63,260 nucleotides of DNA from a virus. Made by a program: the position numbers and the translations under genes. This document shows positions 1-40,215 of the stretch, in pieces (position 1 is the first letter of the stretch; the number at the start of each line of letters is the position of its first letter). The notes under the pieces were generated by a model that saw nothing but the letters and a program-made list of their open reading frames with translations, was not told the origin of the DNA and did no database searches. The stretch is from the IMG/VR virus record IMGVR_UViG_3300010970_000172, positions 1 to 63,260 of that record; one strand, written 5' to 3'.

Positions 1-55
1 AAATTTAGAACGCTGATACTCTTGTAACTTAAAGTCGCTTGAGTCAGAAAGCATT
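1..55. repeat. 55-bp terminal direct repeat, exact copy of 63206..63260 (assembly overlap of a circular or circularly permuted genome)
   Basis: aaatttagaacgctgatactcttgtaacttaaagtcgcttgagtcagaaagcatt is present at both window ends. Confidence 0.95.
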
Positions 56-3000
56 TTGTTGTGAGAGTCGATAATCTTATCCGTAATAGAATACCCCATC
101 TGTACAAGAGGATTCAATGCGGGAACAATATCCTCGAAAGCTTTTTGGCTTCTTGCGGGAGATAAACCCGTAAACTTACCAAACATTTTAAATGCTTCTA
201 ATACATTTTCTGAGTTAAGCCCTTCGTTACCAACAGAAACTGGCTTAGAGTCGCTATTGTTAAAGATTGGCATTTGTTTGTACAGGTCATAGTTAAACCC
301 GTATTCTAAACCAGCCTTAGCAACAGGAATACTAACAAAAGAACTTAATGCGGGAGTAAATCCTTTTAGCCATCTGTCTGTAACGCCAGCTCTCCATTTT
401 GCTTGTCTTGATGGTTCATCAGATACAAGTTTATAATAAGCCCCTTCTCCAATATGTTGGTAAGTATTTAACCAACCTTTAACAATAGAAGGTACAGAAA
501 TCTTAACATATGGTCTTGTCCCATCCTCATTCTTCCAAGGCATAAAGATTACAATCTTATTCAATAAGTCCATTTGAACATCATCGTTATCGTAATCATC
601 TCCAGCTACCATCATATTGTAAACTGTTAAGCCCGCTAACGCAATACCCGCTTTGCTAATCTTATTAAAGAAATCAACCTTATTATTCTTAATGTATTTC
701 CAAGATATAAATGCCCCTTGCGTAAATACGTTAAAGTAAGGTACATAGCCATCCCACATTTTAGACAACAAGCCTCCACGATGATAATCCATTGCAGCCC
801 TTGCCTTATATGCGGCTTCTTCCTTAATTTGCTCTAATGCCTCTCCAACAGGATTTTGCTTTTTGCTTTGGTAGTGTTCCTCAATGAGTCTGTCACGAAC
901 TGTTCTGTATGAGTTGAGCTTAGATGCAACCTCAGATATGTTTCCAAACATTGAAAGATATTCAACAAATTTACCTCCAAAGTTTTTACCGATACCCTCT
1001 TGACTTTGACTCATCATCAAACCGCCAGATTCAGCATATTCTTGTAATAGCTTTTCTACATAAGGATCAGATTTCCCTGTCTCCATCATAAGAAGTCTTT
1101 TAGATAACTCTAAAGTACCACCCATTGCTTGCTTATATTTGCCAGCTACACCACCTGCGTAAATATCAGTAACATTAACTTGAGACATAACGTCAACAGG
1201 AATATTACTAATAAAGAAGCCTGTATTGATACCTGTCGCAAAGAATCTAACTGCTTGAGAACCAGACCACTTAGTAGTAGTATCGTAGATTTTTCTGCGT
1301 AAAGAACCTTGCTCTCCTTTTAAGTCTTTTAATTCCTCATCTAAGAATTCTCTTGCTAAATCCTCTCTTAATTGATAAGCATACTCTTTGCCATCAACTT
1401 TGTAGACCATTTTACGGAATCCTGTATCTTCTTTCAAATACTTGTATGAGCCATCTGGATTTGTCTTAATTGTACCATCGTTGTAGCGTTCGTATTTCAT
1501 TGGCTTAACCCAACCTTGATTAGTATACTGAGAGTCGTTAGCAAGCCCTTTAACCATTTTATTGGTAGCCACCTTAACCTCAGTCATAATCATTGCTCCT
1601 TGAAGCAATTTACGAGAGTCAGACATTAAATAATCGTCAGCCTTTCCATCTTTGATATTTTTGATATCTTCTGATGACAAAATAGAGCCTCTGAAATGAA
1701 ATTGATTTGAGTTTAAAAGCACATTGCCTGTAACATTACCTTGCTCATCTCTTTCTTCGATTCCAAATGCGTAGTCTAAGAACTTACGAGGAGAGTAGTT
1801 GTAATCTTTAAATAGCTCATATGTCTCTTTAGTGATTAATCCATTCTCCATTTTATACTTAAGTAAGTTACTAAACTCACTAAAATACATATCAGAGCGA
1901 GAGATTAAGTCATTGTACTCTTCTTGACCTAAATCATCTTTCATCTTTTCTAATGTAGCCTCAGCAGACTCCTTGTTAGCCTTAACTTTTCTGTCGCCCC
2001 AAACAATTGCATCTTCTCTTCCGTGTGATGGTCGAGCCTTTTCTTTAATCTTGCTTTTTAAGATGCGAATCTCATCAGCATAATCTTGAGCAATCGATGG
2101 GTCGTTCGCAATTATCTGCTTGATAGCTTCTAATTTAGCTTCAAACTCAGCTCTTTGTTTGTCAAAGTTCTCGTCAACTGCAATAACTCTTCGTAAGAAT
2201 ATAGCAGCATCCAACGCTTTAATTTGCTCTGGAGTCAAGCCTTTGTAAATCTTATTAAATGCTTTTTCAAATTTAAAGTTACCAAATTGAGATGCCCCCG
2301 CTTTGTTAAACATAAGGTACATAGAGCGATTGAATTGCGAATCCTCCATTTCCTTGCGGACATTTACCATTCTATCGAACGACATCTTATATAATCCACG
2401 ATAAAGTTCGTGCATACCTTTGTTTAACTCATCGGTACTGCCTTTCATTAAACCTTTGAAAGCCTTCTTAACTGAAGCACCTTCTCTTCTTTCTTGAGAT
2501 TCTTCTTGAGCAGAAAGTACGTTGTAAGATTTCTTCTGTTGCTTAATGGTTGACTTGTTAATAACTGTGATAGCGTCAGAATCAAACACAATGTAGTTCT
2601 TATGACCATCGTTATTACCTCCGAATGTTGCAAAGGTACTAATTCTGTTTCCATCAATACCAGCAGAACTTAGCAACATAGAAGCCATTTGTTGTGGGTC
2701 AAATTTATTCATTCTGTAGCTACCAGAATTTCTAAAAGATTCTGTTACCCAAATGTAAAAATCACCTCCATTCATTTGAGATAACTCTCTTGTATTAAAA
2801 CCCATTACTATAGCTTCGGCAATATTATATGAGTCTGTAAGTGTTAAGAATTTCTTTGTATCTACTTTCTTGGACTTACCTTCATTTTGCATTTTTTGCC
2901 CTAAAACAGACATTGTATTCTTAATCCCCATAAGAATTTGATTAGCATTAGCAAACCCAATTTGACCATTCCAGTCAAGCCAGAATCCATCTTGTAATCC

Positions 3001-6000
3001 ATTAACTCTGTCGTTGACAGCTACTTTATATAAGTTTCTTTCACCAAAAGCTTGGTAAAGTTTATTTCTGTTTGCTTTTGAAATTTTTGTTCCCAAAAAC
3101 CCTTTATTGTCTTCAAGGAACTGCTTCCATTGAGCAAGAGTTGTATTTGTGCTTTGCAACAATTTGTATGCTTGCTCTCTTAACCCATCTGAATTATTCC
3201 CAAATACAGATGCTGTACTTGGCTTTCCTAATACATCAAGGAGTCCTAATTGGCGAAATTTATTACCTTGATTAGCTTTAGAGTAAGACTTAGCTACATT
3301 TATGTCTGTACTAAAATACATCCCCCATCCAAACGCTTGTCTACCCTCCCCAATTCCAATAGATTTTGATTCAAATCTGTTAAAATTCCAAGGAGAGCCG
3401 TGATAAAGGATTTTCTGTGGCTTGATTTGGAATTGCAATTTATCTGCATCAACAGCCTTTTCTTCAATTTCAGCCGATAGCTTATCTTGGTCTTCTGTTA
3501 ATTCATTTTTTGCGTTGTTGTATTTCTCAAACTCTGATGGTTTAACCATTTGAAGCTTTGATTCGTTAACCAAGTTCGATGTTTTCTCAAACAAGTTGTC
3601 TACATCTTCTTGTGTAGCAGCTTCCATCACCTCACCATTAACAAGTGGGCGATAACCTTCATTTAAAAGCTTCTCGGCTTGAAATTCATTAGCTAACTTA
3701 ATGCCAATGTAATCATTGTTAGATAATGATTCAGATGGGTTAATAAGGAACATATTCTGAGTTTCCTTACTCTTGCTGGAAATTGCTGTATCCGCAAACT
3801 CTCCGCCCTCATAACCCTCATCTTCAAGTCTGCTAAATAACTCACTTGTTAATTCCTCTCCAATGTAGCTATCTTCGAATCTTGGGTCGATTAATTCGTG
3901 AATCATATATTCATCTTCAACTCCTAATTCATTTAGAATACCCCGAATTGTATCTTCTGAAGCAATCTTGCTCTTATCAATATTCATTTCAATAAGATTA
4001 CCCTCGTTACCTTCAGCGTAAGCTAATGCCTCTTCTTTGTCGTTAGCAACAAAGAATATCTGATCCCCACTTAATGTAGTGATGTCTTGCACTTCTCCAC
4101 CGTGGAAAACGGGAGTCATTTGTTTTTGAGCTGTTTTCTGAGCTTTAATATTAGGAATATCCTCAAAAGATATATATTCGCTATTAACCTTTCCGTCTGT
4201 CTTTTCGGCTTCAAATTTTTTCATTGCCAAATTTGCTCTTGCCCATTTGCCAATATCTCCAGATTTACTAAATTCTTCTAAATCAATAACGCCTGCGTAA
4301 TTTTTTACGTCACTTAGGCTCATTACTCCCCTCTTGTACTGTCTGTACATTATTGCTTTTTCATTTGGAGTTAAATCTGCATTATATATAATAGACAAAA
4401 CATTGCCCTCTTCCTCTGATACACCTAATATATCCTGTACTGTTTCTCCTTGAGATGCAATCGTTAAATTCTTCTGAGCCTTAATAGTCTCTCTGCTTGC
4501 AACAAGCTCTTTGCCCATTGTCTCTACAGCCTTGTATGGGGAATTTAAGCGTTTTTTAGCAATCCATTCTTTAATTACAGGGAAATAGTCAGTAACATTT
4601 TGGAACTCATTAAACACGCCAACAGGTTCTCCTTTTACAACATAAGGATAACTTGGATGATCAGGTGCATCAATGAAGAATATTCCCTTCTTTTCATTTA
4701 CTAAAGACTTTCTTGTAGTGTATATTTTAGCTAATCCATCCTCTGTATATTCTGGTGCCGCAATCTTAATTGCCGCAACAATATCGTGGTCATTTGCAGT
4801 ATCTGTCTCTTGCTCTGCTAACCCATTAACAATCTCTTCAAGTGATGTAACCTCGTTAGCTTCTAAAAACTTGTACCATTCTCCAGATGATTTTTTATTC
4901 CAACTATCCTTAAGAACTGTGCTCCAAAACCCACCTCTTTTGCTGAATGATTCTCCAACTAATCCCTTTCTTAATTCTTCAATAGAGCGAACCTCTAAGC
5001 GAGGTGCTTTGATACGAACATTTTTCCCATCCTTGTCTAATACAGGAACAGTTTTATTTTTAAGTTTACCATCCTTATCAGTAACCTTGATTACTTCAGT
5101 CTTGTTAACTGTAATTGTCTTCCCTGAATCTTTCCCATACTTTCCTAAAAAGTGTTTACCTGCTCCTAATTGCTTTCCATTAGAAATAGTATTCAACTTG
5201 TTGTTAAGTTGCGTTAAGAATTCCTCTTCTGTAATCTTCCCATTCATTACGGGAGCAATCAATTCAGCAAGAGCAATCTCATTAAAGTTTACATTACCAC
5301 GACTACCCGTAGCACGAGCCATACGATAAACCAATGTAGCATCTTGGTTAATTGCATTCATAACCATTTCTCTTGCTGCCTTTGGGGTAACAGAAGCCCA
5401 AGCAATACCAGCATCACGAATACCTTGAATGTAAGGATAAAATACCCCACCCATAAGGTTACTAACAACAACACCTGATTTACTATTTCTGTACTCACCA
5501 ACTCTTGTGTGATCGGACATTGTAGCACTATATCGTTTACCAATCATATCAGCTACTTCAATGAACGGATGTGGCATCAATTCGTAGCTACCACGCTGTT
5601 GCTTAATATCAGGCTTATCCGCCTTTTTAGGCTTTCTCTTTGACTTAGGTGGTTCTTCTGTTAATGTACCTGTGATATTCAAGTTTGTTGGCTCGAATAA
5701 ATCGCCCGCAAAATCCTCATTTAACGCATCAACATCTTCTTGCTCTTGAGCCTCTGTTGTAGTAGAAGGGCTATAAGCAAGCATTCTGTTTTGCTCAATC
5801 TGATTCTCAAGGTAAGATAAGTCAGCTTTGTTACCCAATCTAATTGATTCTGATAACGACTCAAAGAACTTAGCCAACTCTTCGATGCTTGCGGTCTCAG
5901 AGAATACGCTATTATTAATTAAATTTTGTAATCCTTTTAATTTTAGCTTACCCGCCCATTTAGATAAGAACTCACGAATAGAAAGCATTACCTTGTGCAT

Positions 6001-8874
6001 CGTTCCTCTTTGAATCTTTGCATCACGAACTACCATCATACCGCCAAGCTCCATTAAGAACTCTTCTGCCATATCAATCTTCTCTTGGTCAGTAGCATTC
6101 TTAGCGTCCTTAGCGTACATATCAGCAAACTTCTGTAGCTTATCTGTTACGTTAGTAGGAAGAACCATTATAATGCGTTTCTGCATCTGAATGAATGCCT
6201 CTGGAAACTCTACTGCAATCTGAGCGAACGCTTCGTGGAAGATTTCGTGAGACACAGTATTGTCCTGCATAGTCATTCGGTTAACATATATGTCATCCCC
6301 AACTTTTAATGCATTAGAATCCTTGGCTTTATTAACCGATTCTTTCATCGAATAACCTTTCTCCATTAAAGCTTTAGCTACCTCTGTCCTATTATCAAAA
6401 AGAATAATACGACCATTTGGATTCATTTGCTTTAAAGCTTTGTTCTGATTATTAAGACGTGCTCTTTGCTCCTTTGTTAACTTGTTAAGTATTGGATTAG
6501 CTTCAGCTACCTCTACGTTCTCATCGACAACATAGGCTCTATCTGGAGCAAACTTAACATTCTTCTTGGCTTGGTTAGCCATTAACATTGGAATCAATAC
6601 AGGTGAATTAGTAGTAAATTCTTTGCCCGTTCTTGTATCACGAACTCTGATTTGTTCTACCTCGTCATCCTCGTTCATTTTTGTATCAACTACCTCTAAG
6701 TCACCTTTAATTTTAATGGCGTTATTTACTTGAGTAGATTCTTTTGTCTCAACATTAACTCTAAATTTAGGCTTAGGTTGTAATGAAATTTGACCCTTCT
6801 CATTTACTTGTGCAGTAACTTGGAATGGGTTTCCTTTCTCATCGTATGCTGTGAAGATTTCGCCTTTAAAGCGATTATTTCTAACACGTTGAGCTCTTTG
6901 TAAAGCACGAGCTCCAGTCGTTGCGATACGACCCTCTGCTTGAGATTCTGTTAAACGAGTTCCGTTCTCTGTAGCATTAATATATGTTTCAAGATTACGA
7001 ATCTGACCATTAACCTTACCTAAGGCTTGGTCTTTTTCCAAAGGAGTAAGCTCTGAGTTATTGTAAATAACTTGCTCAATCTCATTTAGCTGGTCAGCCG
7101 CTTTATTTAATTCAGAAACCTCTACATCCTTACCTTGCTCCATCGCCTTCATTGTGTCAGCGTGGTCTTGTTGGAATACTGTATATGCGTTATTGTTAGC
7201 TAAGAACTCCTCAGCTTTAACTTTAGCTTCTTCTTGTCTTAATTTTAATGTGTCGCTATGTCTATCTCTTTCCTTGTTCCATTGCTCCTCCATTAATCCA
7301 TTAACAAAAGTTACCTTCTCTTGAATCTTTTCATCAATGCCAGCTTGAACAGCTTCGTCTTTAGCGTTTCTCTTATCTCGCTGCAATGCTTCCATTTTAT
7401 GAAGAGCATCGATAGCTTCAGAACGCTTCCCTACATCTTCGATTGAAGCGATAGCTGTATAATCATCGTAAGCACCACGTTCTTGGAACTTCATTATATC
7501 GTCAATCTTTTGATTTGCGATTTGACGAGTTTCATCAGATAATGTAGTATCGTTGGCTACTTCTTTTAAACGCTCAATAGATTTCTTTTGTGTCTCATCA
7601 AGTTTATTAGATGTAGCTAATACAAGTGTACCAGACATTGAACCACCAGATAATGAGCCAATTATGAATGCATCAGCAGCGTTTTTCGCAAGAGTGCCAA
7701 GTTCATCCCAAGTTACTTTTTGATTATCAGATTGAGCTTTATCTACAATGAAATTTCCTACTGTAGATAAAATCTCTTCTAATCCTTCTTCTCCAGCACC
7801 TCGGAATATTCTTTTAGCGGCAGGTAGCATACCTCTTACAAGTTGTCTTTTTACTTGTTCTGCACCTTCTTCTGCTACAGCAGTAACAATAGGAGACCCT
7901 CCAATTAATGCTTGCCCCGTTCTTCTTAGTTCCTTTAAGTTAGTTTGGAATAATGATTCAGTAGTTCCTTCAATTAAACCACTCCAAATTGATTTAACAA
8001 TTTCGCTACCTGAAAGACTTTGGTCTTCAGCGTAAGCTTTGTTAATCTCTGCCCCCGTACCCAAAACTGCTGAACCAGTAAATATCTCTGCAGTTCCTCC
8101 CGATGAGGCTAACGCAAGTGACATAGGAATTGTTCTTGCCGCACTTAATGTAGCAATTTTTGCCGCATCAGCATAATTTCCTTCAGAAATAAAATCAATT
8201 ACACTTTTATTCTTGTCGATATCTGACTTTTTAATACCAGAATCTTCTAATACTTGCTTAAATGATAAGTCTCCAATCTCTTGTAAATATCCTGCAGCCT
8301 CATAAATTTGCCCTACAACACTTGGTAGTGGAGCGTTTTCTGATGTCTTAGATGTTTGGAATCCAAAGTCTTCTTTTTTATCTATACTTGAATCGTACCG
8401 CTGTTTAAGATAATCCTGCTTTTCCTTCCAAGACATCTTCGATTGCTTATTTAGTTCATCAGAATCTAATGCAAGCATATCTGAAACCTTGCGACCTACT
8501 GACTGCAAATCTGAACCTACTAAAGCTCCCGCAATCTTAGCGTCAGCAAACCAGTTTCTTGGATTAGCAATATCTAATGCAAGAGCAGCAGAACCTAATC
8601 CACCACTAATTACATCGTATACACCAGAAAAGGTAGCATCACTACCGTGATTTAATCCTCTGAAAAATTTGGTAAACAAATTACCCGTATCCGCCCCTTC
8701 ATTCTTAGAAGACCCAGCCATAGAACTTATTCCCCCAGACGATTCCGTATCGTTTTTTTTTTGAAGCGTATCGTATTTTGTTAAATCGGCACGTTCGTAT
8801 CCTGAAGATGATGGTTGCTCGGAACTAACATTGTACTTAGATAAATCTGCTTTTTCAAATTGTTGCTTAGACAT
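1..8874 (-). CDS. Giant virion-associated polyvalent-type protein, first 2,958 codons. The ORF continues across the junction into 62681..63205, for 3,132 aa in total.
   Basis: My manual reverse-strand translation from the ATG at 8874..8872 (MSKQQFEKADLSKYN...) met no stop down to base 1. Its last 18 codons, MLSDSSDFKLQEYQRSKF, equal the start of track ORF 62681..63259. It contains HEIFH (6235..6249) and H-G-G/S blocks. Only short antisense or out-of-frame ORFs are listed in the track here. Confidence 0.85.
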   Translation of the reverse strand, partial: MSKQQFEKADLSKYNVSSEQPSSSGYERADLTKYDTLQKKNDTESSGGISSMAGSSKNEGADTGNLFTKFFRGLNHGSDATFSGVYDVISGGLGSAALALDIANPRNWFADAKIAGALVGSDLQSVGRKVSDMLALDSDELNKQSKMSWKEKQDYLKQRYDSSIDKKEDFGFQTSKTSENAPLPSVVGQIYEAAGYLQEIGDLSFKQVLEDSGIKKSDIDKNKSVIDFISEGNYADAAKIATLSAARTIPMSLALASSGGTAEIFTGSAVLGTGAEINKAYAEDQSLSGSEIVKSIWSGLIEGTTESLFQTNLKELRRTGQALIGGSPIVTAVAEEGAEQVKRQLVRGMLPAAKRIFRGAGEEGLEEILSTVGNFIVDKAQSDNQKVTWDELGTLAKNAADAFIIGSLSGGSMSGTLVLATSNKLDETQKKSIERLKEVANDTTLSDETRQIANQKIDDIMKFQERGAYDDYTAIASIEDVGKRSEAIDALHKMEALQRDKRNAKDEAVQAGIDEKIQEKVTFVNGLMEEQWNKERDRHSDTLKLRQEEAKVKAEEFLANNNAYTVFQQDHADTMKAMEQGKDVEVSELNKAADQLNEIEQVIYNNSELTPLEKDQALGKVNGQIRNLETYINATENGTRLTESQAEGRIATTGARALQRAQRVRNNRFKGEIFTAYDEKGNPFQVTAQVNEKGQISLQPKPKFRVNVETKESTQVNNAIKIKGDLEVVDTKMNEDDEVEQIRVRDTRTGKEFTTNSPVLIPMLMANQAKKNVKFAPDRAYVVDENVEVAEANPILNKLTKEQRARLNNQNKALKQMNPNGRIILFDNRTEVAKALMEKGYSMKESVNKAKDSNALKVGDDIYVNRMTMQDNTVSHEIFHEAFAQIAVEFPEAFIQMQKRIIMVLPTNVTDKLQKFADMYAKDAKNATDQEKIDMAEEFLMELGGMMVVRDAKIQRGTMHKVMLSIREFLSKWAGKLKLKGLQNLINNSVFSETASIEELAKFFESLSESIRLGNKADLSYLENQIEQNRMLAYSPSTTTEAQEQEDVDALNEDFAGDLFEPTNLNITGTLTEEPPKSKRKPKKADKPDIKQQRGSYELMPHPFIEVADMIGKRYSATMSDHTRVGEYRNSKSGVVVSNLMGGVFYPYIQGIRDAGIAWASVTPKAAREMVMNAINQDATLVYRMARATGSRGNVNFNEIALAELIAPVMNGKITEEEFLTQLNNKLNTISNGKQLGAGKHFLGKYGKDSGKTITVNKTEVIKVTDKDGKLKNKTVPVLDKDGKNVRIKAPRLEVRSIEELRKGLVGESFSKRGGFWSTVLKDSWNKKSSGEWYKFLEANEVTSLEEIVNGLAEQETDTANDHDIVAAIKIAAPEYTEDGLAKIYTTRKSLVNEKKGIFFIDAPDHPSYPYVVKGEPVGVFNEFQNVTDYFPVIKEWIAKKRLNSPYKAVETMGKELVASRETIKAQKNLTIASQGETVQDILGVSEEEGNVLSIIYNADLTPNEKAIMYRQYKRGVMSLSDVKNYAGVIDLEEFSKSGDIGKWARANLAMKKFEAEKTDGKVNSEYISFEDIPNIKAQKTAQKQMTPVFHGGEVQDITTLSGDQIFFVANDKEEALAYAEGNEGNLIEMNIDKSKIASEDTIRGILNELGVEDEYMIHELIDPRFEDSYIGEELTSELFSRLEDEGYEGGEFADTAISSKSKETQNMFLINPSESLSNNDYIGIKLANEFQAEKLLNEGYRPLVNGEVMEAATQEDVDNLFEKTSNLVNESKLQMVKPSEFEKYNNAKNELTEDQDKLSAEIEEKAVDADKLQFQIKPQKILYHGSPWNFNRFESKSIGIGEGRQAFGWGMYFSTDINVAKSYSKANQGNKFRQLGLLDVLGKPSTASVFGNNSDGLREQAYKLLQSTNTTLAQWKQFLEDNKGFLGTKISKANRNKLYQAFGERNLYKVAVNDRVNGLQDGFWLDWNGQIGFANANQILMGIKNTMSVLGQKMQNEGKSKKVDTKKFLTLTDSYNIAEAIVMGFNTRELSQMNGGDFYIWVTESFRNSGSYRMNKFDPQQMASMLLSSAGIDGNRISTFATFGGNNDGHKNYIVFDSDAITVINKSTIKQQKKSYNVLSAQEESQERREGASVKKAFKGLMKGSTDELNKGMHELYRGLYKMSFDRMVNVRKEMEDSQFNRSMYLMFNKAGASQFGNFKFEKAFNKIYKGLTPEQIKALDAAIFLRRVIAVDENFDKQRAEFEAKLEAIKQIIANDPSIAQDYADEIRILKSKIKEKARPSHGREDAIVWGDRKVKANKESAEATLEKMKDDLGQEEYNDLISRSDMYFSEFSNLLKYKMENGLITKETYELFKDYNYSPRKFLDYAFGIEERDEQGNVTGNVLLNSNQFHFRGSILSSEDIKNIKDGKADDYLMSDSRKLLQGAMIMTEVKVATNKMVKGLANDSQYTNQGWVKPMKYERYNDGTIKTNPDGSYKYLKEDTGFRKMVYKVDGKEYAYQLREDLAREFLDEELKDLKGEQGSLRRKIYDTTTKWSGSQAVRFFATGINTGFFISNIPVDVMSQVNVTDIYAGGVAGKYKQAMGGTLELSKRLLMMETGKSDPYVEKLLQEYAESGGLMMSQSQEGIGKNFGGKFVEYLSMFGNISEVASKLNSYRTVRDRLIEEHYQSKKQNPVGEALEQIKEEAAYKARAAMDYHRGGLLSKMWDGYVPYFNVFTQGAFISWKYIKNNKVDFFNKISKAGIALAGLTVYNMMVAGDDYDNDDVQMDLLNKIVIFMPWKNEDGTRPYVKISVPSIVKGWLNTYQHIGEGAYYKLVSDEPSRQAKWRAGVTDRWLKGFTPALSSFVSIPVAKAGLEYGFNYDLYKQMPIFNNSDSKPVSVGNEGLNSENVLEAFKMFGKFTGLSPARSQKAFEDIVPALNPLVQMGYSITDKIIDSHNKMLSDSSDFKLQEYQRSKF

Positions 8875-11387: not shown

Positions 11388-14300
11388 TTATGAGTGACCA
11401 GATACTGGTGCAATTTCAACATCTATAGAATTAATACGCATATTCTGCGTTTTATCCTTTAAAGTTACAACAAATTTATTAAGATAGCCAACAATGTAGT
11501 CACCTTCTATTATAGCATTTGTCATAAGCAAGCCTGCCCTATAAGATAATTCATTGCGTAGGATATACGCATACAAGCGATTATCCTCCATTAGGAAATT
11601 TGATTCAACTATTGATGTCGATTGCCCATTCTCGTTTGTTATGTTAATTGACAATAAATTTGATTTAACGCTATTGGATTGTCCCCAATCAATAACATTC
11701 ATATCGTGCGTTATAGCCACATTTAATGGCATAACAGGAACTCGACTATTTAGCATTAATGATATTGAACCATCATAAGATGCATTAAGTAAATACCCGT
11801 AATCATTAGTGGTAGTATTGTCGACTGGCTTGTACATAACCCCACTCTTAAATATCACCATCTTATCACCGTAGCTTTCCGCAAAATCTGTACGGAAATT
11901 ATAATTTTCTGCTATCCAACGCTGTAATACATCTGACCAACCAGCGGAAACCGTTTCGCTTCCAAACCCAATAAAACACATATTGTAGAATGGGTCATAT
12001 GCGAAAGTAGCCTTACCTGATTTACCTAAGAAATACGACCGCATATAGATATCACTCGGAATAACAAGTCCATCAGTAGTATATTTAACTACTTTTTTGT
12101 TGAAATCGTCCCACCACCAAATCATACCTTTGTAGTTCATCACAGATTCTTTGTGTAACATACCAAGGTTGTTCCCAAAGTTTCTAATTGTACCAATCAT
12201 ATTGGCTGTCAATGACCTAATAGCAGAGTTATTTCCTTGCGATAACTCTTGCTCGCCAAGCATAATGTATGCCGATTCTTTTTGACACAACACAAGTAGC
12301 ATAGAACCATTACCTTGTAGGCGAGAGGCTCTCTGCAAAGATGTAATAGCTCCATTCTCAATAGCTACATCGTTGCTATCAGCTGCGTAGAAACTATTTA
12401 CATTATTAATACTTGTCCCTGCTACATAATTGCCACCGTAACGAATTGTATTTGTTCTACGAGGGTTAGATAGCGTATTAGTAATAATTGATGGCTTACC
12501 CGCAGATGTATACCATTGAGGGTAAGATGTAGCGTTAGAAGCCGAACGAATCAGAACCTTTGTAGTTGTAGTTGAAACTTTAGCATTGTTATTGTAAGTA
12601 GTTGTAACTTTTGGGGTAGTTCTATCTCCATTAATAGTAAACTTAACCGCTGCTCCAGTTGCTGGTTTTTCTATTGTAAATACAGCATTGTCGCAGTCAC
12701 CCAATAGTACAGGAGAGACCACTATTTCAATGTAGAATTTATCATTAGGATTTATGTCTTTTACATCATTAGGCATAGTCAATGTTTGGCTTGCCGTTAG
12801 CGAAGATGTTGTTGGTGTTCCGCTAATTCCGCTTCCAACAACCCCACCCAAAGATTCAGTTGACTTAACAAATTTCTCTACCTTCCCATAAATATTCTTA
12901 ACATTGTCGTATGGTATTCTGTATAGTTGTGCACTAATACTTAAGCTTAAGCCTCCAGATGGGGATGAAACAGAATCGTAAGTTAACGTGTGAGTAAGCT
13001 TAAAGCTGTAATCAATAACAATTCTATTTATGTCAGCGTCTTGTTCTTGTTGCTCATAATATCCAGTTAACTTAAATGCTGGTCCCGATGATGCAGCGTT
13101 CCCATCTTTATCTAAGATTACTGCTCCATCTTGGTTTGTCCCAAAAGATGTCCACTTAGGATTTAACTTAAGTTCAATCGTTTTTGGTACACTATTTTTA
13201 TTCGCATTGTAATCTGCTGTAGCGGTGAAATTCACATTTTCCGCAGTATCTGCCATAGAGCAATAAACCTCAGTAACCCTGTCTTCTACTACATAATCTT
13301 TTGATGGAACTGGTTTTTCAATATTATATAAGAAAGGGGCATTTGAGTATGTAGGCAAATCTAATGTAGTAAATACTGTATCCCCAATCAGCTTGGATGT
13401 AGTAGCACTATTCAATGTACCGTTACCTTGAAATGTCTTAACTAATGGAGATGCAAGTGGAGTTGTTGTTGACCCCCACCCTGTAATGTCAACTAAATTA
13501 CCATATTCGTAGAATACAAGCGACTCATCTTCTTGAATTTGCTTAGGAGAATATAACTCAAAAAACAATAATTTTGGGTCAGGTGTCTCAAGGTTTGTCA
13601 TTGCACCCCCATTGTATAGGCAGTACACAAGATTGTTATCTTGATGATGCACCTTCATATCAAGCAATCCATTTGGAGATGGAGTGTTGATTGTAATTCT
13701 ATCCCCCTCTTCAAATGTGTATACTCTACCAGCACGATACATTCCCATTAAGTCAACAACGAAATACTGAATGTCTTTCAACTGATCAGTAGTTACCGAC
13801 TGGCTTACACCCGAAACAACTGTAGTTTCCTTTGTTGTAGGGTTTGTTTCTGTACGATTAATCTGAAAGTATATGTTACTTGCAAAACCCTCGTAGAAAT
13901 AAGATTTAGATGTATTCTTGGTATATACTAATTGTGCATACTTTGCCCAACTTGGTCTTAGCCATCCCGCCTTGAATTCAACAGAAACAGTAGGTACTAA
14001 AGGATAGGCAAATTTACCCGTTGTAAACTTTACAAAGTTTTTCTCTACACCTCTTGTCTTTAGTGCCGAATCGTAAAAAGCAATACCCGCAGCATAAACA
14101 GAGTTATTTGCAAATGGCTTTACATATTCTGCACCTGCATATGTTGTCTCAGAGCTTGTTGGAGATGTTAATCCCACGCCACTAATATATGTATTCGCAG
14201 CACCTCCCGTTGGCAATGAGTATCCAGTTGAATCGGCTGTAATTGCAAAATTCAAGTTAGCCGCTACAATATCGTAGTCGTCTTTAACGTCAGCTAAAAA

Positions 14301-15158
14301 TATTCTGTTCTTTGCAATCTCAATATGTTTTGCGTTTACAGGAACCGCATCATAAGGGCTACCTGTAGTCACAACATCTAAGCTTTCGTAAGTTTGACCC
14401 GACCAAGTAAATGTAGGAGTACCTGTTGCATCTTGTGTGTCAATTCTTCTCCAAATACCATTGTTTCCTACACGAACATACACTTCAACTGAATCAGCAA
14501 AGTATGGCTTATTTGTAAAGTCGTAAGATAAGGTATAAGAAACTGTCCCCTTTTCACCTTTGTACATTTGACTGTAGTTGCCAAGTACAGAGTATTCGTT
14601 AGAAGAGTAATGGTATCTGCTTGCAAACTGATAATCGTTACTTTCAAGTAAATCTACTCCAGCTCCAATATTCTTCTTAAAACTAACAACATTATTTGGA
14701 GTATCTTTTTGAAGCTTTAAATCTAAAATAGTTCTGGTCCCTGACAAAGCAGTAGCAGTAGGGCAAATAAGAACCGTTCCTTCTTCAGCGTAGTTCCAAA
14801 CTACATTAGAGCCAATAACCTTAATGTCGGGGGTAAATGTTGTTGTAACTAAATGCGTATAAGTTACAAGTGCAACAGATGAATCTAAAGTGGTAGGTAC
14901 TTTATAAATTGTAGCCGTAGTCCCGTTGTCAACAAGAACAAATATTGTTCCATCAACATCTTGAGTTGTCTCCTTAATATTAGAAAACGTAACCCCTGTT
15001 GTACGGATTGATTCAAGCAAACGGATTGCTCCAGCACCCCCTGATTTACCAGAATCGAATACTATATTAGATGCTGATACATAATCGCCTTGAGGCAAGT
15101 TATTTGGGTCAACATCTTTATTTAAACCCCCTGTTGCGGTGAGACTTACTCTGCTCAT
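11388..15158 (-). CDS. Large virion structural protein, 1,256 aa (putative tail or nozzle component)
   Basis: Track ORF. Called on size and position in the late operon. No enzymatic motif seen. Confidence 0.5.
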   Translation of the reverse strand: MSRVSLTATGGLNKDVDPNNLPQGDYVSASNIVFDSGKSGGAGAIRLLESIRTTGVTFSNIKETTQDVDGTIFVLVDNGTTATIYKVPTTLDSSVALVTYTHLVTTTFTPDIKVIGSNVVWNYAEEGTVLICPTATALSGTRTILDLKLQKDTPNNVVSFKKNIGAGVDLLESNDYQFASRYHYSSNEYSVLGNYSQMYKGEKGTVSYTLSYDFTNKPYFADSVEVYVRVGNNGIWRRIDTQDATGTPTFTWSGQTYESLDVVTTGSPYDAVPVNAKHIEIAKNRIFLADVKDDYDIVAANLNFAITADSTGYSLPTGGAANTYISGVGLTSPTSSETTYAGAEYVKPFANNSVYAAGIAFYDSALKTRGVEKNFVKFTTGKFAYPLVPTVSVEFKAGWLRPSWAKYAQLVYTKNTSKSYFYEGFASNIYFQINRTETNPTTKETTVVSGVSQSVTTDQLKDIQYFVVDLMGMYRAGRVYTFEEGDRITINTPSPNGLLDMKVHHQDNNLVYCLYNGGAMTNLETPDPKLLFFELYSPKQIQEDESLVFYEYGNLVDITGWGSTTTPLASPLVKTFQGNGTLNSATTSKLIGDTVFTTLDLPTYSNAPFLYNIEKPVPSKDYVVEDRVTEVYCSMADTAENVNFTATADYNANKNSVPKTIELKLNPKWTSFGTNQDGAVILDKDGNAASSGPAFKLTGYYEQQEQDADINRIVIDYSFKLTHTLTYDSVSSPSGGLSLSISAQLYRIPYDNVKNIYGKVEKFVKSTESLGGVVGSGISGTPTTSSLTASQTLTMPNDVKDINPNDKFYIEIVVSPVLLGDCDNAVFTIEKPATGAAVKFTINGDRTTPKVTTTYNNNAKVSTTTTKVLIRSASNATSYPQWYTSAGKPSIITNTLSNPRRTNTIRYGGNYVAGTSINNVNSFYAADSNDVAIENGAITSLQRASRLQGNGSMLLVLCQKESAYIMLGEQELSQGNNSAIRSLTANMIGTIRNFGNNLGMLHKESVMNYKGMIWWWDDFNKKVVKYTTDGLVIPSDIYMRSYFLGKSGKATFAYDPFYNMCFIGFGSETVSAGWSDVLQRWIAENYNFRTDFAESYGDKMVIFKSGVMYKPVDNTTTNDYGYLLNASYDGSISLMLNSRVPVMPLNVAITHDMNVIDWGQSNSVKSNLLSINITNENGQSTSIVESNFLMEDNRLYAYILRNELSYRAGLLMTNAIIEGDYIVGYLNKFVVTLKDKTQNMRINSIDVEIAPVSGHS

Positions 15159-15182
15159 TTCTTAAATATTAAAATGACAATA

Positions 15183-15941
15183 TTAGTTCTTGATACTTCC
15201 GTGAATTCCTTTTCTTATTAAGCCAATAATTTCAGCATAATCCATTGAATTCATTCTTGCTCTAAATACTCTGCGAGCATTTTCAAAGTCTTGCTTTGCT
15301 AACTGAAACAAACCAATTCTTGCTCCATCAGCAGCAGAAGCCATCATTTTAATGTATTTAGTAATTACATCAATAGCGTATGGCGTAACAAGGTTAGCTG
15401 TAGACTTCGAAACAGAAGATGTGATATAGGTCAATGTAACTTCAGTAAGAGACATTGTATTACAAAATACAAGTTCGGAATTAGTAGTATCAATATCGTA
15501 TGTTAGCAAAGGTTTGCGTTGCTTTCCATAATATCGACCAACTAACTCTCCTCTTGTGTTTAAATTATTGGCACCAGAAATTAAGTTATAGTTAAATTCT
15601 GAGTCGTAGTTAATGTTACTATCTGTAGGGTAAGGAATCTTATTGCCCGCCTCGTCACGATTGTAGTTCTTGTTTAAAGTTCTATCCCGCTCCATTGGAA
15701 GCAATCGCTCTCCGTGCTTTGCAGAAACATCTACTACGTCAATAAAATCTGTTGGCAATATAGCTCTTTGATAAGATGTCGTACTTAATACAACACTCTT
15801 AACATTCCCCATATCGTAGTCCATCGAAAGCTCATCTAAGATACGAAGAGCGTGATGTAAGTAGCGTGTATAATAATGTAATGGTAAACCGTTATCTAAT
15901 AACGCATCCCTAACGATTATATTTATAGATTTAGTCTTCAT
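15183..15941 (-). CDS. Hypothetical structural protein, 252 aa
   Basis: Track ORF, tightly packed in the late operon. Confidence 0.5.
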   Translation of the reverse strand: MKTKSINIIVRDALLDNGLPLHYYTRYLHHALRILDELSMDYDMGNVKSVVLSTTSYQRAILPTDFIDVVDVSAKHGERLLPMERDRTLNKNYNRDEAGNKIPYPTDSNINYDSEFNYNLISGANNLNTRGELVGRYYGKQRKPLLTYDIDTTNSELVFCNTMSLTEVTLTYITSSVSKSTANLVTPYAIDVITKYIKMMASAADGARIGLFQLAKQDFENARRVFRARMNSMDYAEIIGLIRKGIHGSIKN

Positions 15942-15943
15942 CT

Positions 15944-16597
15944 TTATTGTTGTTGTTGAGTTGCCATTTCAGCTTGAGCGACACGTCCATTACTAATAAC
16001 AGCAAGCACTTCATTAATTACGGCGGTTTCAACATCTGGAGAAATTGGCAATAAGTCAGTATCTGTTAATTGAGAGAAATCAGCTACTAATAAATTCACA
16101 AGAACACTTGAGATGCTACCATTTGCTGACAATGTAATATCCTTTGTAAAGTAAACCTTTGTTCCTTGTAAGTAATATCCAACTTGCCCTTCCAAATAAC
16201 TAACATTTGTTCCGCTTGCAATTGAGCCAAAAACAAGCACATCTTGAGCGGGAATTGGAATATAAGGTGTAATTGCTGCATTAGTAGCACTAATACTCCA
16301 AATCCCTAAATCCATTGGTAAGGATAGAGGGATTGCAGGCAATGTGATATATGACCTGCTATTAGTAGAGTCCGATGTAACTGTTCTCGTATACTGAATG
16401 ATGTTACACTTTGGTACATCAATGCTGCCCGCTTTAAATGACTCAGCTACTTGTAATTTAAGTACCTTGTTAAGAGATTGCTCTACAAGTAACTTAACCT
16501 CACGCAAGTCAATTACATCCGAAGGATTATCTTTATCGAGAAACCTTGCGTAGATTCGCTGGGCTTGTTCTGCTATCTTATATTTTGTAGTTGCCAT
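15944..16597 (-). CDS. Hypothetical structural protein, 217 aa
   Basis: Track ORF. Its start and stop abut the neighbouring genes. Confidence 0.5.
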   Translation of the reverse strand: MATTKYKIAEQAQRIYARFLDKDNPSDVIDLREVKLLVEQSLNKVLKLQVAESFKAGSIDVPKCNIIQYTRTVTSDSTNSRSYITLPAIPLSLPMDLGIWSISATNAAITPYIPIPAQDVLVFGSIASGTNVSYLEGQVGYYLQGTKVYFTKDITLSANGSISSVLVNLLVADFSQLTDTDLLPISPDVETAVINEVLAVISNGRVAQAEMATQQQQ

Positions 16598-17274
16598 TAT
16601 CGTTCGTCATTTTTTTGGTTAACATCCATCATGCCCTCTATATTAGCCACATCGCCATCTTTCAATGTGATACCCAAGTACATTAATGCACGAGTCACAA
16701 TATCAGAATAGTATCTGTCAGCAACATCGATATCTACATTCCCCGATGAAGCAGCTGATATGTTACCGTTAACTACTACTGCATTATAAAATGCTGTAGC
16801 TGGCTTTCTCATATAAACAAATGTAAAAACGTAATTACCCGATGTAGGTATCGGTGCAAATTCAATTTTCGCAGTTCCCGTAGTGTCAAGATATATAGTC
16901 GCAGCAGGGTAAGCACGATCAGGAGCAAGAATCGAACTATTTTTAATTTCAAGAAATTCATCCCACGAGTATAAAGTACCCTCAATTTGGACTGTGTTTT
17001 CATTGGTGTGATATATAGTTAGACCCTCTACATAATCGGTAGGTAAGTCTTGCACACTTGTAGTTGGCGATACCGTAAAGGTTGCTCTCTTAACAAGTAA
17101 GTGGTCGTATTCGAACTTTCCAGTTTTGTGGTATTTATAGATAACGGCACTCATCCAATCAGCAACACCTCTGTTGATTGCTCTATCTATATCCTTTGGG
17201 GAGACAAAACCAGCTTTATTCTTTTTAATGATGCTGCGAATGAAATCGTGAGCATCAACTATAGAAATTGCCAT
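16597..17274 (-). CDS. Hypothetical structural protein, 225 aa
   Basis: Track ORF. Preceded by a TAACTTTG -7-like box (17298..17305, minus strand). Confidence 0.5.
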   Translation of the reverse strand: MAISIVDAHDFIRSIIKKNKAGFVSPKDIDRAINRGVADWMSAVIYKYHKTGKFEYDHLLVKRATFTVSPTTSVQDLPTDYVEGLTIYHTNENTVQIEGTLYSWDEFLEIKNSSILAPDRAYPAATIYLDTTGTAKIEFAPIPTSGNYVFTFVYMRKPATAFYNAVVVNGNISAASSGNVDIDVADRYYSDIVTRALMYLGITLKDGDVANIEGMMDVNQKNDER

Positions 17275-17388
17275 TGTATTTTATTTTTAATTTAGACCAA
17301 AGTTAATCATTTTTTTATTATATACGAGAATCCCCTGACTCATAGAATCAAGGGATTTACTTGAAAATCAAAATGAAAAAAAACGTAC

Positions 17389-17589
17389 TCAAATCTTGTC
17401 GACTAATCGGCTTATCTTATTTGCTATTTTAGTTTCTAAATCAAACTTTAAATCGTGGTCTTCTATCATCTCAATTGGCTCTATAAGCTCAATGAGAATA
17501 GCCAACTTAGTGTCAATCATAGCTATCTTTTTTACTTCAGCTATTTCTTGTTCGCTATAGTTGTCTTGGTTTAGATGGTAATGGCTCAT
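17389..17589 (-). CDS. Hypothetical protein, 66 aa
   Basis: Track ORF. Its start overlaps the stop of the upstream 45-aa ORF (ATGA). Confidence 0.45.
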   Translation of the reverse strand: MSHYHLNQDNYSEQEIAEVKKIAMIDTKLAILIELIEPIEMIEDHDLKFDLETKIANKISRLVDKI

Positions 17590-17723
17590 TTTCCTTGCCC
17601 TTGGTAGGGTTTTTTATAGTTCTTAGAAGTCTTTGATGACGATGATTTTGTCTTAGCGTGGACTCCTTTATTACTCTTTTTAGCCTTCGGCTTGAAATTT
17701 GCTGTTGCTATTGCTTTTGCCAT
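17586..17723 (-). CDS. Small Lys/Ser-rich basic protein, 45 aa (below the track cutoff)
   Basis: Manual translation: MAKAIATANFKPKAKKSNKGVHAKTKSSSSKTSKNYKKPYQGQGK. It has a TAATG overlap with the upstream gene and an ATGA overlap with the downstream gene. Confidence 0.4.
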   Translation of the reverse strand: MAKAIATANFKPKAKKSNKGVHAKTKSSSSKTSKNYKKPYQGQGK

Positions 17724-18181
17724 TATCGAGGGAATATAAACTTGAAATAAAGATAAAGCAAAATGATTAAAGTTTCAACAAATAGTGCAATAATTATCCA
17801 AGAAGGTATAATATTCTTTACAATGACTTTTTCCACAACAGAAGTGCTTCTGCCAATTTCTTTGATTTTAGTGGAATCGATAATAGACGACGTAGTTGCA
17901 GTCGCCATAACAGATGCGACAATGTTATTGTTCTTGCTTTGAATTTGAACTTTTCCATTTGGTATAGAGATTTGTGCATAAAACGAATTAATGATTCCTG
18001 AGCTGTCGCAAGGGTTGAATATAACAATAGAATCTTTCTGTGGAACAGTTCGTATTACCTCTCTGTAACGCAAGAATGTATCTATTCGTACAGATTCTTT
18101 GTTTGTGTACGATGTAGCCTTGCGTGTGCAAGAGCAAGTAATCACCGCAAATGCGGCAATTAGAAGTGTTAATCGACTCAT
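17723..18181 (-). CDS. Unimolecular-spanin-like protein (N-terminal lipoprotein signal plus C-terminal TM helix)
   Basis: The internal start MSRLTLLIAAFAVITCSC overlaps the endolysin stop (ATGA). The C-terminus is IIPSWIIIALFVETLIILLYLYF. It lies directly after the endolysin. Confidence 0.45.
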   Translation of the reverse strand: MSRLTLLIAAFAVITCSCTRKATSYTNKESVRIDTFLRYREVIRTVPQKDSIVIFNPCDSSGIINSFYAQISIPNGKVQIQSKNNNIVASVMATATTSSIIDSTKIKEIGRSTSVVEKVIVKNIIPSWIIIALFVETLIILLYLYFKFIFPR

Positions 18182-39460: not shown

Positions 39461-39571
39461 GGTGATACTATAGTAGCACCCCCCTGCTACCCCGCAATCA
39501 CCCCCCCTGCTACTCGGCAAGCATCTACAAATGTTTTAGTGCTACTATAGTTGCATCTACAAATGTTTTAG
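39461..39571. repeat. Iteron cluster A. It holds the near-palindrome GGTGATACTATAGTAGCACC, C-run/TGCTAC boxes, and two tandem 32-bp units TGCTAC-N7-GCATCTACAAATGTTTTAG.
   Basis: 39461..39480 is the reverse complement of 49472..49491. TGCTACTCGGCAAGCA (39508..39523) is repeated at 49452..49467. The 32-bp units are at 39508..39539 and 39540..39571. Confidence 0.8.
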
Positions 39572-40215
39572 TTTTTACATAAAATATCACTCTGACGTAT
39601 CGTATAGTAGGTTTTGCCTTCAATCACGTTTTCAAAGTTTGTATTTTTGTCTATGACAACAATTTCACCTGCGTTAACATCAATTGCATCAACATTTTTT
39701 AATGGTTTTCCAATATGAGCCAACTTTGCCCTCTTAGTTGAGTCTTCTTTTGTAACAGATGTAACGAGACCAAAAGAATTTTTTACCGCAGACATCTTAA
39801 CTCCACCAACTTCTATCTCCTCAAATTCATCTTCGTTTTCAACAATCTTCTCGCAGAACGTCCACCCACCAATAGGTATAATATCAGTACCCCTAACAAC
39901 GCAGAAAATCCAGCAATAAGGAATGCGATAATAGTTACCATATATACAAGCATTCTCATCGAATGTAGCAAGGTAATGAAAGTATACTTTATCGCCCACC
40001 CGTACATCTGCTTCAATTTCAATTCCGTCTTCGTTATAGCATTTGCCTTTTGGTACTGCTTTAACCACTCCGTATATTCTTGCATTGTGTGTGGGTTTAA
40101 ATAAAGGGTCTATAAATATCTGTAATGACCCATATTGAACTGTGTCATCGTACTGTGCACCAATCTCTACAATCAGAGAGTTAGGCGATGCTTGAGTAAG
40201 CTCGTATGATAGCAT
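39568..40215 (-). CDS. Tandem Cpn10/GroES-like protein (putative phage co-chaperonin)
   Basis: Two halves each carry a GroES-like pattern: ARIYGVVKAVPKG..VRVGDKVYF, and RAKLAHIGKP..VNAGEIVVID..YYTIRQSDIL. Confidence 0.4.
   Translation of the reverse strand: MLSYELTQASPNSLIVEIGAQYDDTVQYGSLQIFIDPLFKPTHNARIYGVVKAVPKGKCYNEDGIEIEADVRVGDKVYFHYLATFDENACIYGNYYRIPYCWIFCVVRGTDIIPIGGWTFCEKIVENEDEFEEIEVGGVKMSAVKNSFGLVTSVTKEDSTKRAKLAHIGKPLKNVDAIDVNAGEIVVIDKNTNFENVIEGKTYYTIRQSDILCKN

Follow-up and report, generated by a model that had tools for sequence, protein, structure and literature searches.

We analyzed a 63,260-nucleotide stretch of viral DNA (IMG/VR record IMGVR_UViG_3300010970_000172), hereafter the window, one end of which is taken up by a giant gene. 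A single open reading frame (ORF) of 2,958 codons runs without a stop along the minus strand (8874..1). Its ATG at 8874 is directly preceded by in-frame stops, and the frame exits the window at base 1, leaving the C-terminus outside. The relatives P0001-P0012 are 2,990–3,025 amino acids (aa) long, which puts ~50–70 C-terminal residues beyond the window. The encoded protein contains a metallopeptidase (MPTase)-like domain with a HExxH motif, two ADP-ribosyltransferase (ART) modules, referred to as ART1 and ART2, and at least two further modules, and cassettes are gained or lost among its relatives. By domain content it is a polyvalent protein, a concept put forward for large proteins of phages and conjugative elements by Iyer, Burroughs, Anand, de Souza and Aravind in 2017 (PMC5512222). 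In this design, a phage would bring several enzymes that manipulate the host into the cell as a single polypeptide. The sequence includes no cysteine and 23 histidines (0.8%) in its 2,958 residues.

A HExxH motif arises in 1.5% of 20,000 shuffles of the giant protein, and its conservation was examined in progressively wider sets of relatives. Five residues of the domain (H876, E877, H880, E937, and E938) are invariant in 13 relatives with identity down to 23%. A profile of residues 775–1035 was searched against 1.84 billion cluster representatives (clusters at 50% identity). This returned 885 proteins at E ≤ 1e-3, 625 of them at E ≤ 1e-10, and nearly all are 2,000–3,900 aa long. In samples of 20 and 30 sequences from these 885, the same five positions are the sole, or nearly the sole, invariant columns. 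The family consensus reads IHINxxxAxxxTvAHExFHA ... LxxFAxxY ... aEEfLaELxG. The family that the domain represents is large (no fewer than 885 clusters at 50% identity) and is absent from current model libraries. The domain is also the most widely kept part of the conserved scaffold described below, found by phmmer in 76 of 162 giant proteins.

The AlphaFold2 model of residues 775–1035 has a predicted local distance difference test (pLDDT) score of 77.9 and a predicted template modeling (pTM) score of 0.73. In model numbering, a helix (27–43), a strand (48–52), and a hairpin (81–84/87–91) come before the HExxH helix (99–115), and a helix with the two glutamates follows (155–174). The predicted model has the hallmarks of a zincin, a HExxH helix and a Glu on a later helix, with an N-terminal helix and a three-stranded sheet ahead of the HExxH. 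This is the order of elements described for the zincin-like MPTases of polyvalent proteins (PMC5512222). In BFVD, the model matches only pieces of large or giant phage proteins. The named ones include a ‘Structural protein’ of Flavobacterium phage elemo (E = 4.4e-4), a ‘Large polyvalent protein associated domain-containing protein’, and an ‘Internal protein D’.

Profile comparisons suggest a remote link to the ArdC-type proteases. Sub-threshold Pfam matches of the family go to M91, DUF5700, DUF6782, Astacin, and M78 (zincin families); they are scattered or recurring and none is significant. A 30-sequence profile searched against PDB sequences gave ten matches, all sub-threshold, including ArdC (6i89, E = 0.29) and two IrrE-type zinc proteases (IrrE, E = 0.37). 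Both the ArdC and IrrE alignments lie at the strand-plus-HExxH element, and ArdC additionally aligns at its FEELIAEIG helix. We gathered 72 ArdC-type domains from genomes and compared their profile with an 82-sequence profile of the HExxH family by hhalign. The result was a probability of 55.8%, with E = 1.1e-4 and a score of 36.9, over 114 collinear columns that take in both motifs. Control profiles (one reversed and 20 column-shuffled ArdC profiles) gave E-values of 0.046 or worse and scores of at most 20. Against the MPTase region of the N4 virion RNA polymerase (vRNAP), used as a single sequence, the family gave E = 1e-3 to 5e-3, with only the strand and the HExxH helix aligned. The domain is quite probably a zincin-like metallopeptidase, remotely related to the ArdC/MPTase-PolyVal type. 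The protease is fairly likely to be enzymatically active.

ART2 is a split ART-PolyVal domain, collinear with this family over its whole length, and its predicted triad H1825/Y1853/D2074 is intact. The Pfam ART-PolyVal model (PF18760) matches residues 1821–1871 (E = 1.3e-5, 26.4 bits), with weaker matches to DUF3990 and PARP. The same model matches 8 of 13 full-length relatives (best E = 1.7e-13), and ART2-family domains of the distant proteins P0073 and P0060 reach 32.4 and 28.4 bits in Pfam. What splits the domain is a mostly helical insert of ~200 aa, located after the helix that follows G-M-Y-F-S-T. Canonical domains have no such insert; it is common to P0013 and the distant giant proteins P0022, P0024, P0044, P0060, P0063, P0073, and P0076.

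The canonical reference consisted of 11 ART-PolyVal domains from the same giant-protein collection, one of which matches the full Pfam profile at E = 2.7e-16. With hhalign, the N-terminal half of ART2 aligns to this reference at 94.4% (E = 8.6e-8, 45 columns). The last 67 residues align separately (E = 1.5e-4, score 28.7, 42 columns), and 15 shuffles score at most 12.2. The canonical YHGT motif lines up with H1825 and the G.[YWF]F[ST] motif with Y1853. In the C-terminal alignment, GIDG takes the position of the [DE]G strand of canonical domains, and NYIVFDSDAI that of their last strand, QYVVF.PNQIK. The Asp at position 2074 is kept in 10 of 11 ART2-family members. The catalytic residues of the ART-PolyVal family are a His on strand 1, a Tyr on strand 2, and an Asp on strand 5 (PMC5512222). 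Because GIDG falls on the [DE]G strand and the family is H-Y-D, the triad of ART2 appears intact. ART2 is fairly likely to be an active enzyme.

These assignments bear on an initial annotation of this DNA, made from its letters alone. It had located the HExxH motif and the block KILYHGS..FGWGMYFSTDINVAKSYS (aa 1821–1865, 3280..3414) exactly. The block MTPVFHGG..IFFVANDKEEALAYAEG is present at aa 1586–1622 (4009..4119); the lower bound first given for it, 3976, is 33 nucleotides too low. GHKNYIVFD, also present, had been put at about 2575..2605, slightly off its true position. The ART blocks had been called H-Y-E type, which does not agree with the H-Y-D triad of ART-PolyVal. An Asn had been proposed to replace the catalytic Glu in GHKNYIVFD. 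That proposal arose from a misalignment with the NEYIV of PARP, one strand too far, and the acid position is D2074 in GIDGN.

ART1, the other ART module, is a divergent ART-PolyVal-like domain, as judged by profile comparison, and it has a helical insert of its own. A hidden Markov model of ART1 finds the same domain in seven distant giant proteins (E = 1e-11 to 1e-35). For four of six distant ART1 relatives, ART-PolyVal is the top sub-threshold Pfam match (E = 2.8e-4 to 0.07). A nine-sequence ART1 profile aligns to canonical ART-PolyVal by hhalign at 91.5% (E = 8.6e-7, score 45.8), and 15 shuffled controls reach at most 14.1. With a relaxed mact setting the alignment is collinear over the full length; GYEGGEF then matches the [DE]G strand, and QNMFLINP the final one. 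Direct comparison of ART1 with ART2 from shallow profiles gave E = 0.018, weak alone, and the question was settled by comparing each with canonical ART-PolyVal. Five profiles built in this analysis gave nothing significant against PDB sequences (hmmsearch). The catalytic competence of ART1 is uncertain because the acid position varies among its relatives and two of them lack the His. An active ART1 is possible but less likely than not.

The architecture of the protein was derived from the occupancy of a 13-sequence alignment and from phmmer searches of window segments against 162 giant proteins. A conserved scaffold (aa 231–480, the protease domain, and aa 2116–2958) encloses a variable middle (aa 1036–2115), which in this phage holds four modules: Module A, Module B, ART1, and ART2. 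The ART2 cassette is cleanly missing from P0007-P0009. Module B is not present in the closest relatives, P0001-P0008, and a similar segment stands in P0009 in place of ART1, which looks like cassette exchange. Relatives that share the HExxH domain carry LPD38, LPD23, ART-PolyVal, DUF7178, SprT-like, and methyltransferase domains. By tblastn and BLASTP, the C-terminal scaffold is homologous to gp120 (a ‘virion structural protein’) and gp121 of Cellulophaga phage phi46:3, and also to the C-terminal part of a giant coding sequence (CDS) of Maribacter phage Panino. The whole giant protein matched nothing in PHROGs and NCBIfam.

Several observations accompany this picture. Phage phi46:3 has its C-terminal scaffold homologue in two pieces, gp120 and gp121 (11614..18133), which a 320-nucleotide gap separates; the break may be genuine or come from sequencing or annotation. 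The Panino CDS (PP540027.1, 9565..15054, 1,829 aa) is labeled ‘tRNA methyltransferase’ and has no Pfam match at E ≤ 0.01; this annotation looks unsupported. The giant protein P0132 (3,098 aa) has in common with the window protein the protease domain and Module A only (its aa 1294–1902, 43% identity over 689 aligned positions), with no match in the N- or C-terminal scaffold. The protease and Module A may thus move together as a unit. We also weighed lateral exchange of Module A, as a cassette common to the window protein and P0132, and rejected it, as the match is contiguous with the MPTase domain at 43% identity and there is no clean swap.

A short motif marks the borders of the variable modules. 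The window protein has five copies of IK[AQP]Q[KR] (aa 1090, 1464, 1576, 1817, and 2110), where ~0.1 copies are expected, and none of 2,000 shuffles reaches five. They sit exactly at the edges of Module A, Module B, ART1, ART2, and the C-terminal scaffold (2533..5610; Table 1). The loss of ART2 and the swap of Module B for ART1 both fall exactly between junction motifs. At the corresponding junctions of distant family members the sequence is [SI]K[AS]Q, and sIRQQ closes the canonical ART-PolyVal modules of the family. A count across 142 giant proteins gave 122 copies of [SI]K[ASQ]Q, with 39.7 expected, a ~3-fold enrichment. The motif may serve the embedded protease as a cleavage site, or it may be a linker or a joint for recombination.

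Table 1. Features of the giant gene, in order from the N-terminus (window coordinates)
Feature	Position	Strand	Basis
Giant ORF	1..8874	-	2,958 aa in window, full length ~3,000–3,025 aa in relatives; stop-free translation, relatives P0001-P0012
N-terminal scaffold region, aa 231–480, Gly-rich, weakly hydrophobic	7435..8184	-	phmmer, 33 of 162 giant proteins; hydropathy peaks at aa 237–271 and 400–422
Probable zincin-like metallopeptidase (MPTase-like) domain, aa ~790–1030	5785..6507	-	AlphaFold2 topology; 885 family representatives; hhalign to ArdC MPTase domain
HEIFH, aa 876–880, predicted zinc ligands and general base (H876, E877, H880)	6235..6249	-	Invariant in three family alignments
E937-E938 in AEEFLMEL, candidate third zinc ligand on downstream helix	6061..6066	-	Invariant; aligns with FEELIAEI of ArdC
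Junction motif 1, DIKQQR, aa 1089–1094	5593..5610	-	Motif scan
Module A, aa 1095–1464, between DIKQQR and TIKAQK	4483..5592	-	No family match; 13 local relatives
Junction motif 2, TIKAQK, aa 1463–1468	4471..4488	-	Motif scan
Module B, aa 1469–1576, insertion between two IKAQK motifs	4147..4470	-	Alignment occupancy; one other local match
Junction motif 3, NIKAQK, aa 1575–1580	4135..4152	-	Motif scan
ART1, divergent ART-PolyVal-like core, aa 1586–1716, with H1591, F1608, E1689 and helical insert	3727..4119	-	hhalign; shuffled controls; sub-threshold Pfam matches of relatives
Junction motif 4, QIKPQK, aa 1816–1821	3412..3429	-	Motif scan
ART2, ART-PolyVal domain, aa 1817–2110, with ~200-aa helical insert and predicted triad H1825/Y1853/D2074	2545..3426	-	PF18760, E = 1.3e-5; hhalign; clean absence in P0007-P0009
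GIDGNR, predicted catalytic strand of ART2 with D2074	2644..2661	-	Aligns with canonical [DE]G strand
GHKNYIVFD, aa 2090–2098, last beta-strand of ART2	2581..2607	-	Aligns with canonical QYVVF.PNQIK
Junction motif 5, TIKQQK, aa 2109–2114	2533..2550	-	Motif scan
C-terminal scaffold, aa 2116–2958+, hydrophobic segments at aa 2544–2562, 2738–2758, and 2838–2856	1..2529	-	Phage homologues; 47–55 local relatives

The neighboring genes place the giant gene in a phage with a recognizable structural module. The large terminase (36734..38743) and the portal (34422..36731) have PHROGs matches at E = 1e-87 to 1e-90. Between the portal and the giant gene lie virion and tail-fiber-like genes of the same strand, and a replication module (DnaB-like helicase, replication initiator, and exonuclease) is divergent, on the other strand. 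The terminase is ~31% identical to terminases of Flavobacterium, Cellulophaga, Tenacibaculum, and Maribacter phages. The source is a podovirus-like phage of marine Flavobacteriia, from a poorly studied lineage of marine Bacteroidota phages. In L086, a close and near-identical metagenomic relative, an SU10-type adaptor gene is followed by genes of 217, 252, 1255, 291, and 516 aa, the giant gene, and small genes. The ORF-size series of this block is repeated in the window. On this gene order, the giant gene is the last and largest of the tail/ejection block. In Rhodobacteraceae phage MD07, a similar giant gene comes after a gene for an ‘internal virion protein’.

Other features of the window were noted along the way. 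A 225-aa ORF (16597..17274, minus strand) has the size and position of the L086 gene with a Pfam SU10_adaptor match; this counterpart suggests an SU10/kuravirus-like head-to-tail adaptor. The 517-aa gene upstream of the giant gene has no similarity to phi46:3 gp118. The phage also encodes a GroES-like co-chaperonin (39568..40215, minus strand) and a glutamine amidotransferase-like protein (43025..43873, plus strand). Coding strand and GC skew flip at ~40–41 kb, between the structural and replication modules. An antisense ORF of 218 aa (4673..5329, plus strand) within the giant gene is probably a spurious frame of a long coding region.

What the analysis shows is domain homology, conserved catalytic residues, a modular cassette layout, and the position of the gene. 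By position, size, and C-terminal homology, the giant protein most probably belongs to the internal virion or ejection proteins and carries cargo domains. Podoviral internal virion proteins are known to host domains destined for the cytoplasm (PMC4819975), and the same principle has been described for polyvalent proteins (PMC5512222). Its position after the tail genes and its C-terminal homology to a ‘virion structural protein’ make packaging in the virion and injection rather likely. We favor, with moderate confidence, a virion-delivered polyvalent effector that combines a zincin-like domain with two ART-PolyVal-type modules. In the proposed mechanism, the protein would be packaged in the virion and ejected into the cell along with the DNA. 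ART2 would use NAD+ to ADP-ribosylate host targets early in infection, by analogy with T4 Alt, and ART1 would act likewise or be a degenerate copy. The metallopeptidase would cut the polyprotein, possibly at the IK[AQP]Q[KR] junctions, and so free the modules, or it would attack host proteins. The initial annotation had likewise proposed a giant protein of polyvalent type in which a zincin-like HExxH domain is joined to two ART-like modules. That view is supported by the ART-PolyVal match, the hhalign probabilities of 91–94%, the hhalign alignment with ArdC, and the LPD38 and LPD23 domains of relatives.

A set of results weighs against the effector reading. The HExxH domain matches no Pfam family (including MPTase-PolyVal), NCBIfam family, or PHROG, and the MPTase-PolyVal model itself (PF18818) gave no match at E up to 1–10 for the window or for 8 and 30 family members. 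Profile searches had been proposed as a check in the initial annotation; the ART-PolyVal model recognized ART2 (E = 1.3e-5) and LPD domains turned up in relatives, while MPTase-PolyVal left the HExxH domain unmatched. The structural check proposed there, AlphaFold with Foldseek, matched no zincin or ART structure. For the good HExxH model, Foldseek against PDB found no zincin and nothing at E ≤ 0.001, the top matches being helical bundles. The AlphaFold2 model of both ARTs (aa 1578–2116) is poor (pLDDT 56), and Foldseek gave nothing usable for it. The link to ArdC has an hhalign probability of just 56%. The 26.4 bits of the window ART2 are below the Pfam gathering score of 31.2 and cover profile positions 7–52 of 140; the match is limited to these positions because the insert interrupts ART2. 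The window ART1 sequence has no Pfam match. Its triad positions are H1591, F1608 in the place of Tyr, and E1689 in the place of Asp, with A1610 where Ser or Thr is usual. Among ART1 relatives the acid position varies (E, G, D, K), a different Asp (FxD) is kept, and two lack the His. The C-terminal region has no detectable similarity to the C-terminus of N4 gp50 (hhalign, E = 0.09) or to any PDB chain.

Could the enzymatic blocks be remnants? On this account the giant protein is a structural ejection (internal virion) protein, and its ART-like and HExxH blocks are decayed and catalytically dead. The degenerate triad of ART1 (F1608, A1610), the ART1 relatives without His, the sub-threshold Pfam score of the window ART2, and a mostly helical protein with hydrophobic segments would all suit it. 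Yet the HExxH and the EE pair are invariant in the sampled 885-representative family, and the H, Y, and D of ART2 are retained and family-conserved. In dead domains, catalytic residues would not stay fixed at 20–30% overall identity, and we regard general decay as improbable. The same conservation bears on the idea that the motifs are chance matches in a long, low-information protein. Short motifs do occur in ~3,000 residues, and both Foldseek searches against PDB lacked a match at E ≤ 0.001. But HExxH appears in 1.5% of shuffles and is invariant family-wide, and profile–profile scores of 37–55 compare with at most 20 for shuffled controls. Conservation and controls refute chance. A hidden virion RNA polymerase (RNAP), crAss-like two-barrel or N4-like, with the ART and protease as accessories as in Roseovarius Plymouth podovirus 1, is very unlikely. 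The position and size of the gene do resemble N4 gp50 and crAss-like gp66, and the C-terminal DDYDNDD (aa 2759–2765) resembles DxDxD. Among 58 family members, however, D2760 alone is conserved and the rest is a variable acidic loop. We rejected DDYDNDD as an RNAP metal site for this lack of conservation, and a two-barrel polymerase is unlikely because the sequence is not a conserved DxDxD site. Nor is there a Pfam RNAP match; the hhalign alignment to the C-terminus of N4 gp50 stays at E = 0.09, and the whole-protein profile finds no PDB chain at E ≤ 1 except one unrelated viral protein (E = 0.24).

The most serious alternative concerns the target of the metallopeptidase. It may be a host-directed effector that cuts, for example, a host defense or housekeeping protein, without any self-processing, and IKxQK would then be flexible linkers or recombination joints. 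N4 vRNAP, ArdC, and TraC1 are transferred unprocessed despite their MPTase domain (PMC5512222). In every ART2-family member the motif stands a few residues before strand 1, where it could be a domain edge, and its family-wide enrichment is just ~3-fold. Against this, the motif flanks unrelated modules (A, B, ART1, and ART2) and also stands where the C-terminal scaffold starts, and the wide retention of the protease domain (76/162) suits a housekeeping role for the polyprotein. We see a host-directed protease without self-processing as a possibility of the lesser kind, and self-cleavage at the junction motif as tentative to a similar degree. More speculative still is a phage polyprotein in which the zincin cuts [SI]K[ASQ]Q[KR] junctions after ejection and frees the ART and other modules, with the junctions doubling as joints for cassette swaps.

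The virion-delivered effector that we favor can be set beside known systems. Like other polyvalent proteins (PMC5512222; for example, the vRNAP of Roseovarius Plymouth podovirus 1 with MPTase and ART), it is a giant polypeptide with a zincin-like MPTase hub and at least one H-Y-D ART. It shares with them many uncharacterized modules, extensive domain shuffling, and a phage late/virion gene context. It differs in that no RNAP, methylase, helicase, or nuclease module was detected in the giant protein, and in an N-terminal and ~850-aa C-terminal scaffold specific to a marine, mostly metagenomic family. Its MPTase is unmatched by Pfam MPTase-PolyVal, and ART2 has the ~200-aa insert. The C-terminal metalloprotease domain of ArdC (plasmid R388, PDB 6i89), the prototype of MPTase-PolyVal, has a collinear xIHhxx strand end, T(L/V)AHExxH, LxxF helix, and EE(L/F)(I/L)AE(I/L)G third-ligand helix. 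That similarity is remote and at the profile level (56%). The giant protein lacks the single-stranded DNA-binding ArdC-N domain, and its HExxH–EE spacing is longer (57 aa).

The Alt protein of phage T4 is an ADP-ribosyltransferase that travels in the phage head and is injected along with the DNA to modify host proteins. It is the working model for the ARTs in polyvalent proteins (PMC5512222), and a comparable delivery is what we infer here. Alt itself belongs to the R-S-E clade, is a single-function protein of ~70 kDa, and has no sequence relation to ART1 or ART2. Podoviral internal virion proteins (T7 gp16/IVP-D family, N4 gp50, and Pseudomonas phage H66 gp60; Hardies et al. 2016, PMC4819975) are likewise encoded by the largest gene ending the tail/ejection block. 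They are helical with hydrophobic segments and have enzyme domains able to act only inside the cell. In contrast to them, the giant protein has no lytic transglycosylase domain and no detected similarity to the gp50 C-terminus. DarB and DdrB of phage P1 are also very large. These P1 proteins are head-packaged antirestriction factors, and DdrB, whose MPTase domain lies at the C-terminus, undergoes proteolytic processing before it is packaged (PMC5512222). They differ in coming from an enterobacterial myovirus, in their methylase/helicase or ParB-like domains, and in having no ART.

An MPTase and an ART in one giant phage protein are an already published polyvalent-protein pattern. Three things extend this pattern: a protease-like family that is large and has no Pfam model, an ART2 domain in two parts, and the junction motif. 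The prediction is that polyvalent proteins are among the chief means with which phages and conjugative elements disarm a cell in the first minutes of invasion; hardly any has been examined experimentally. A conserved scaffold with clearly delimited, exchangeable enzymatic cassettes is tractable, and the junction motif suggests how polyvalent proteins might be cut into working parts. The polyprotein reading, if true, would supply a defined processing code for polyvalent proteins, so far merely postulated. For marine Bacteroidota phages, the analysis provides a usable description of giant genes that are now “hypothetical” or mis-annotated, such as the “tRNA methyltransferase” of Panino.

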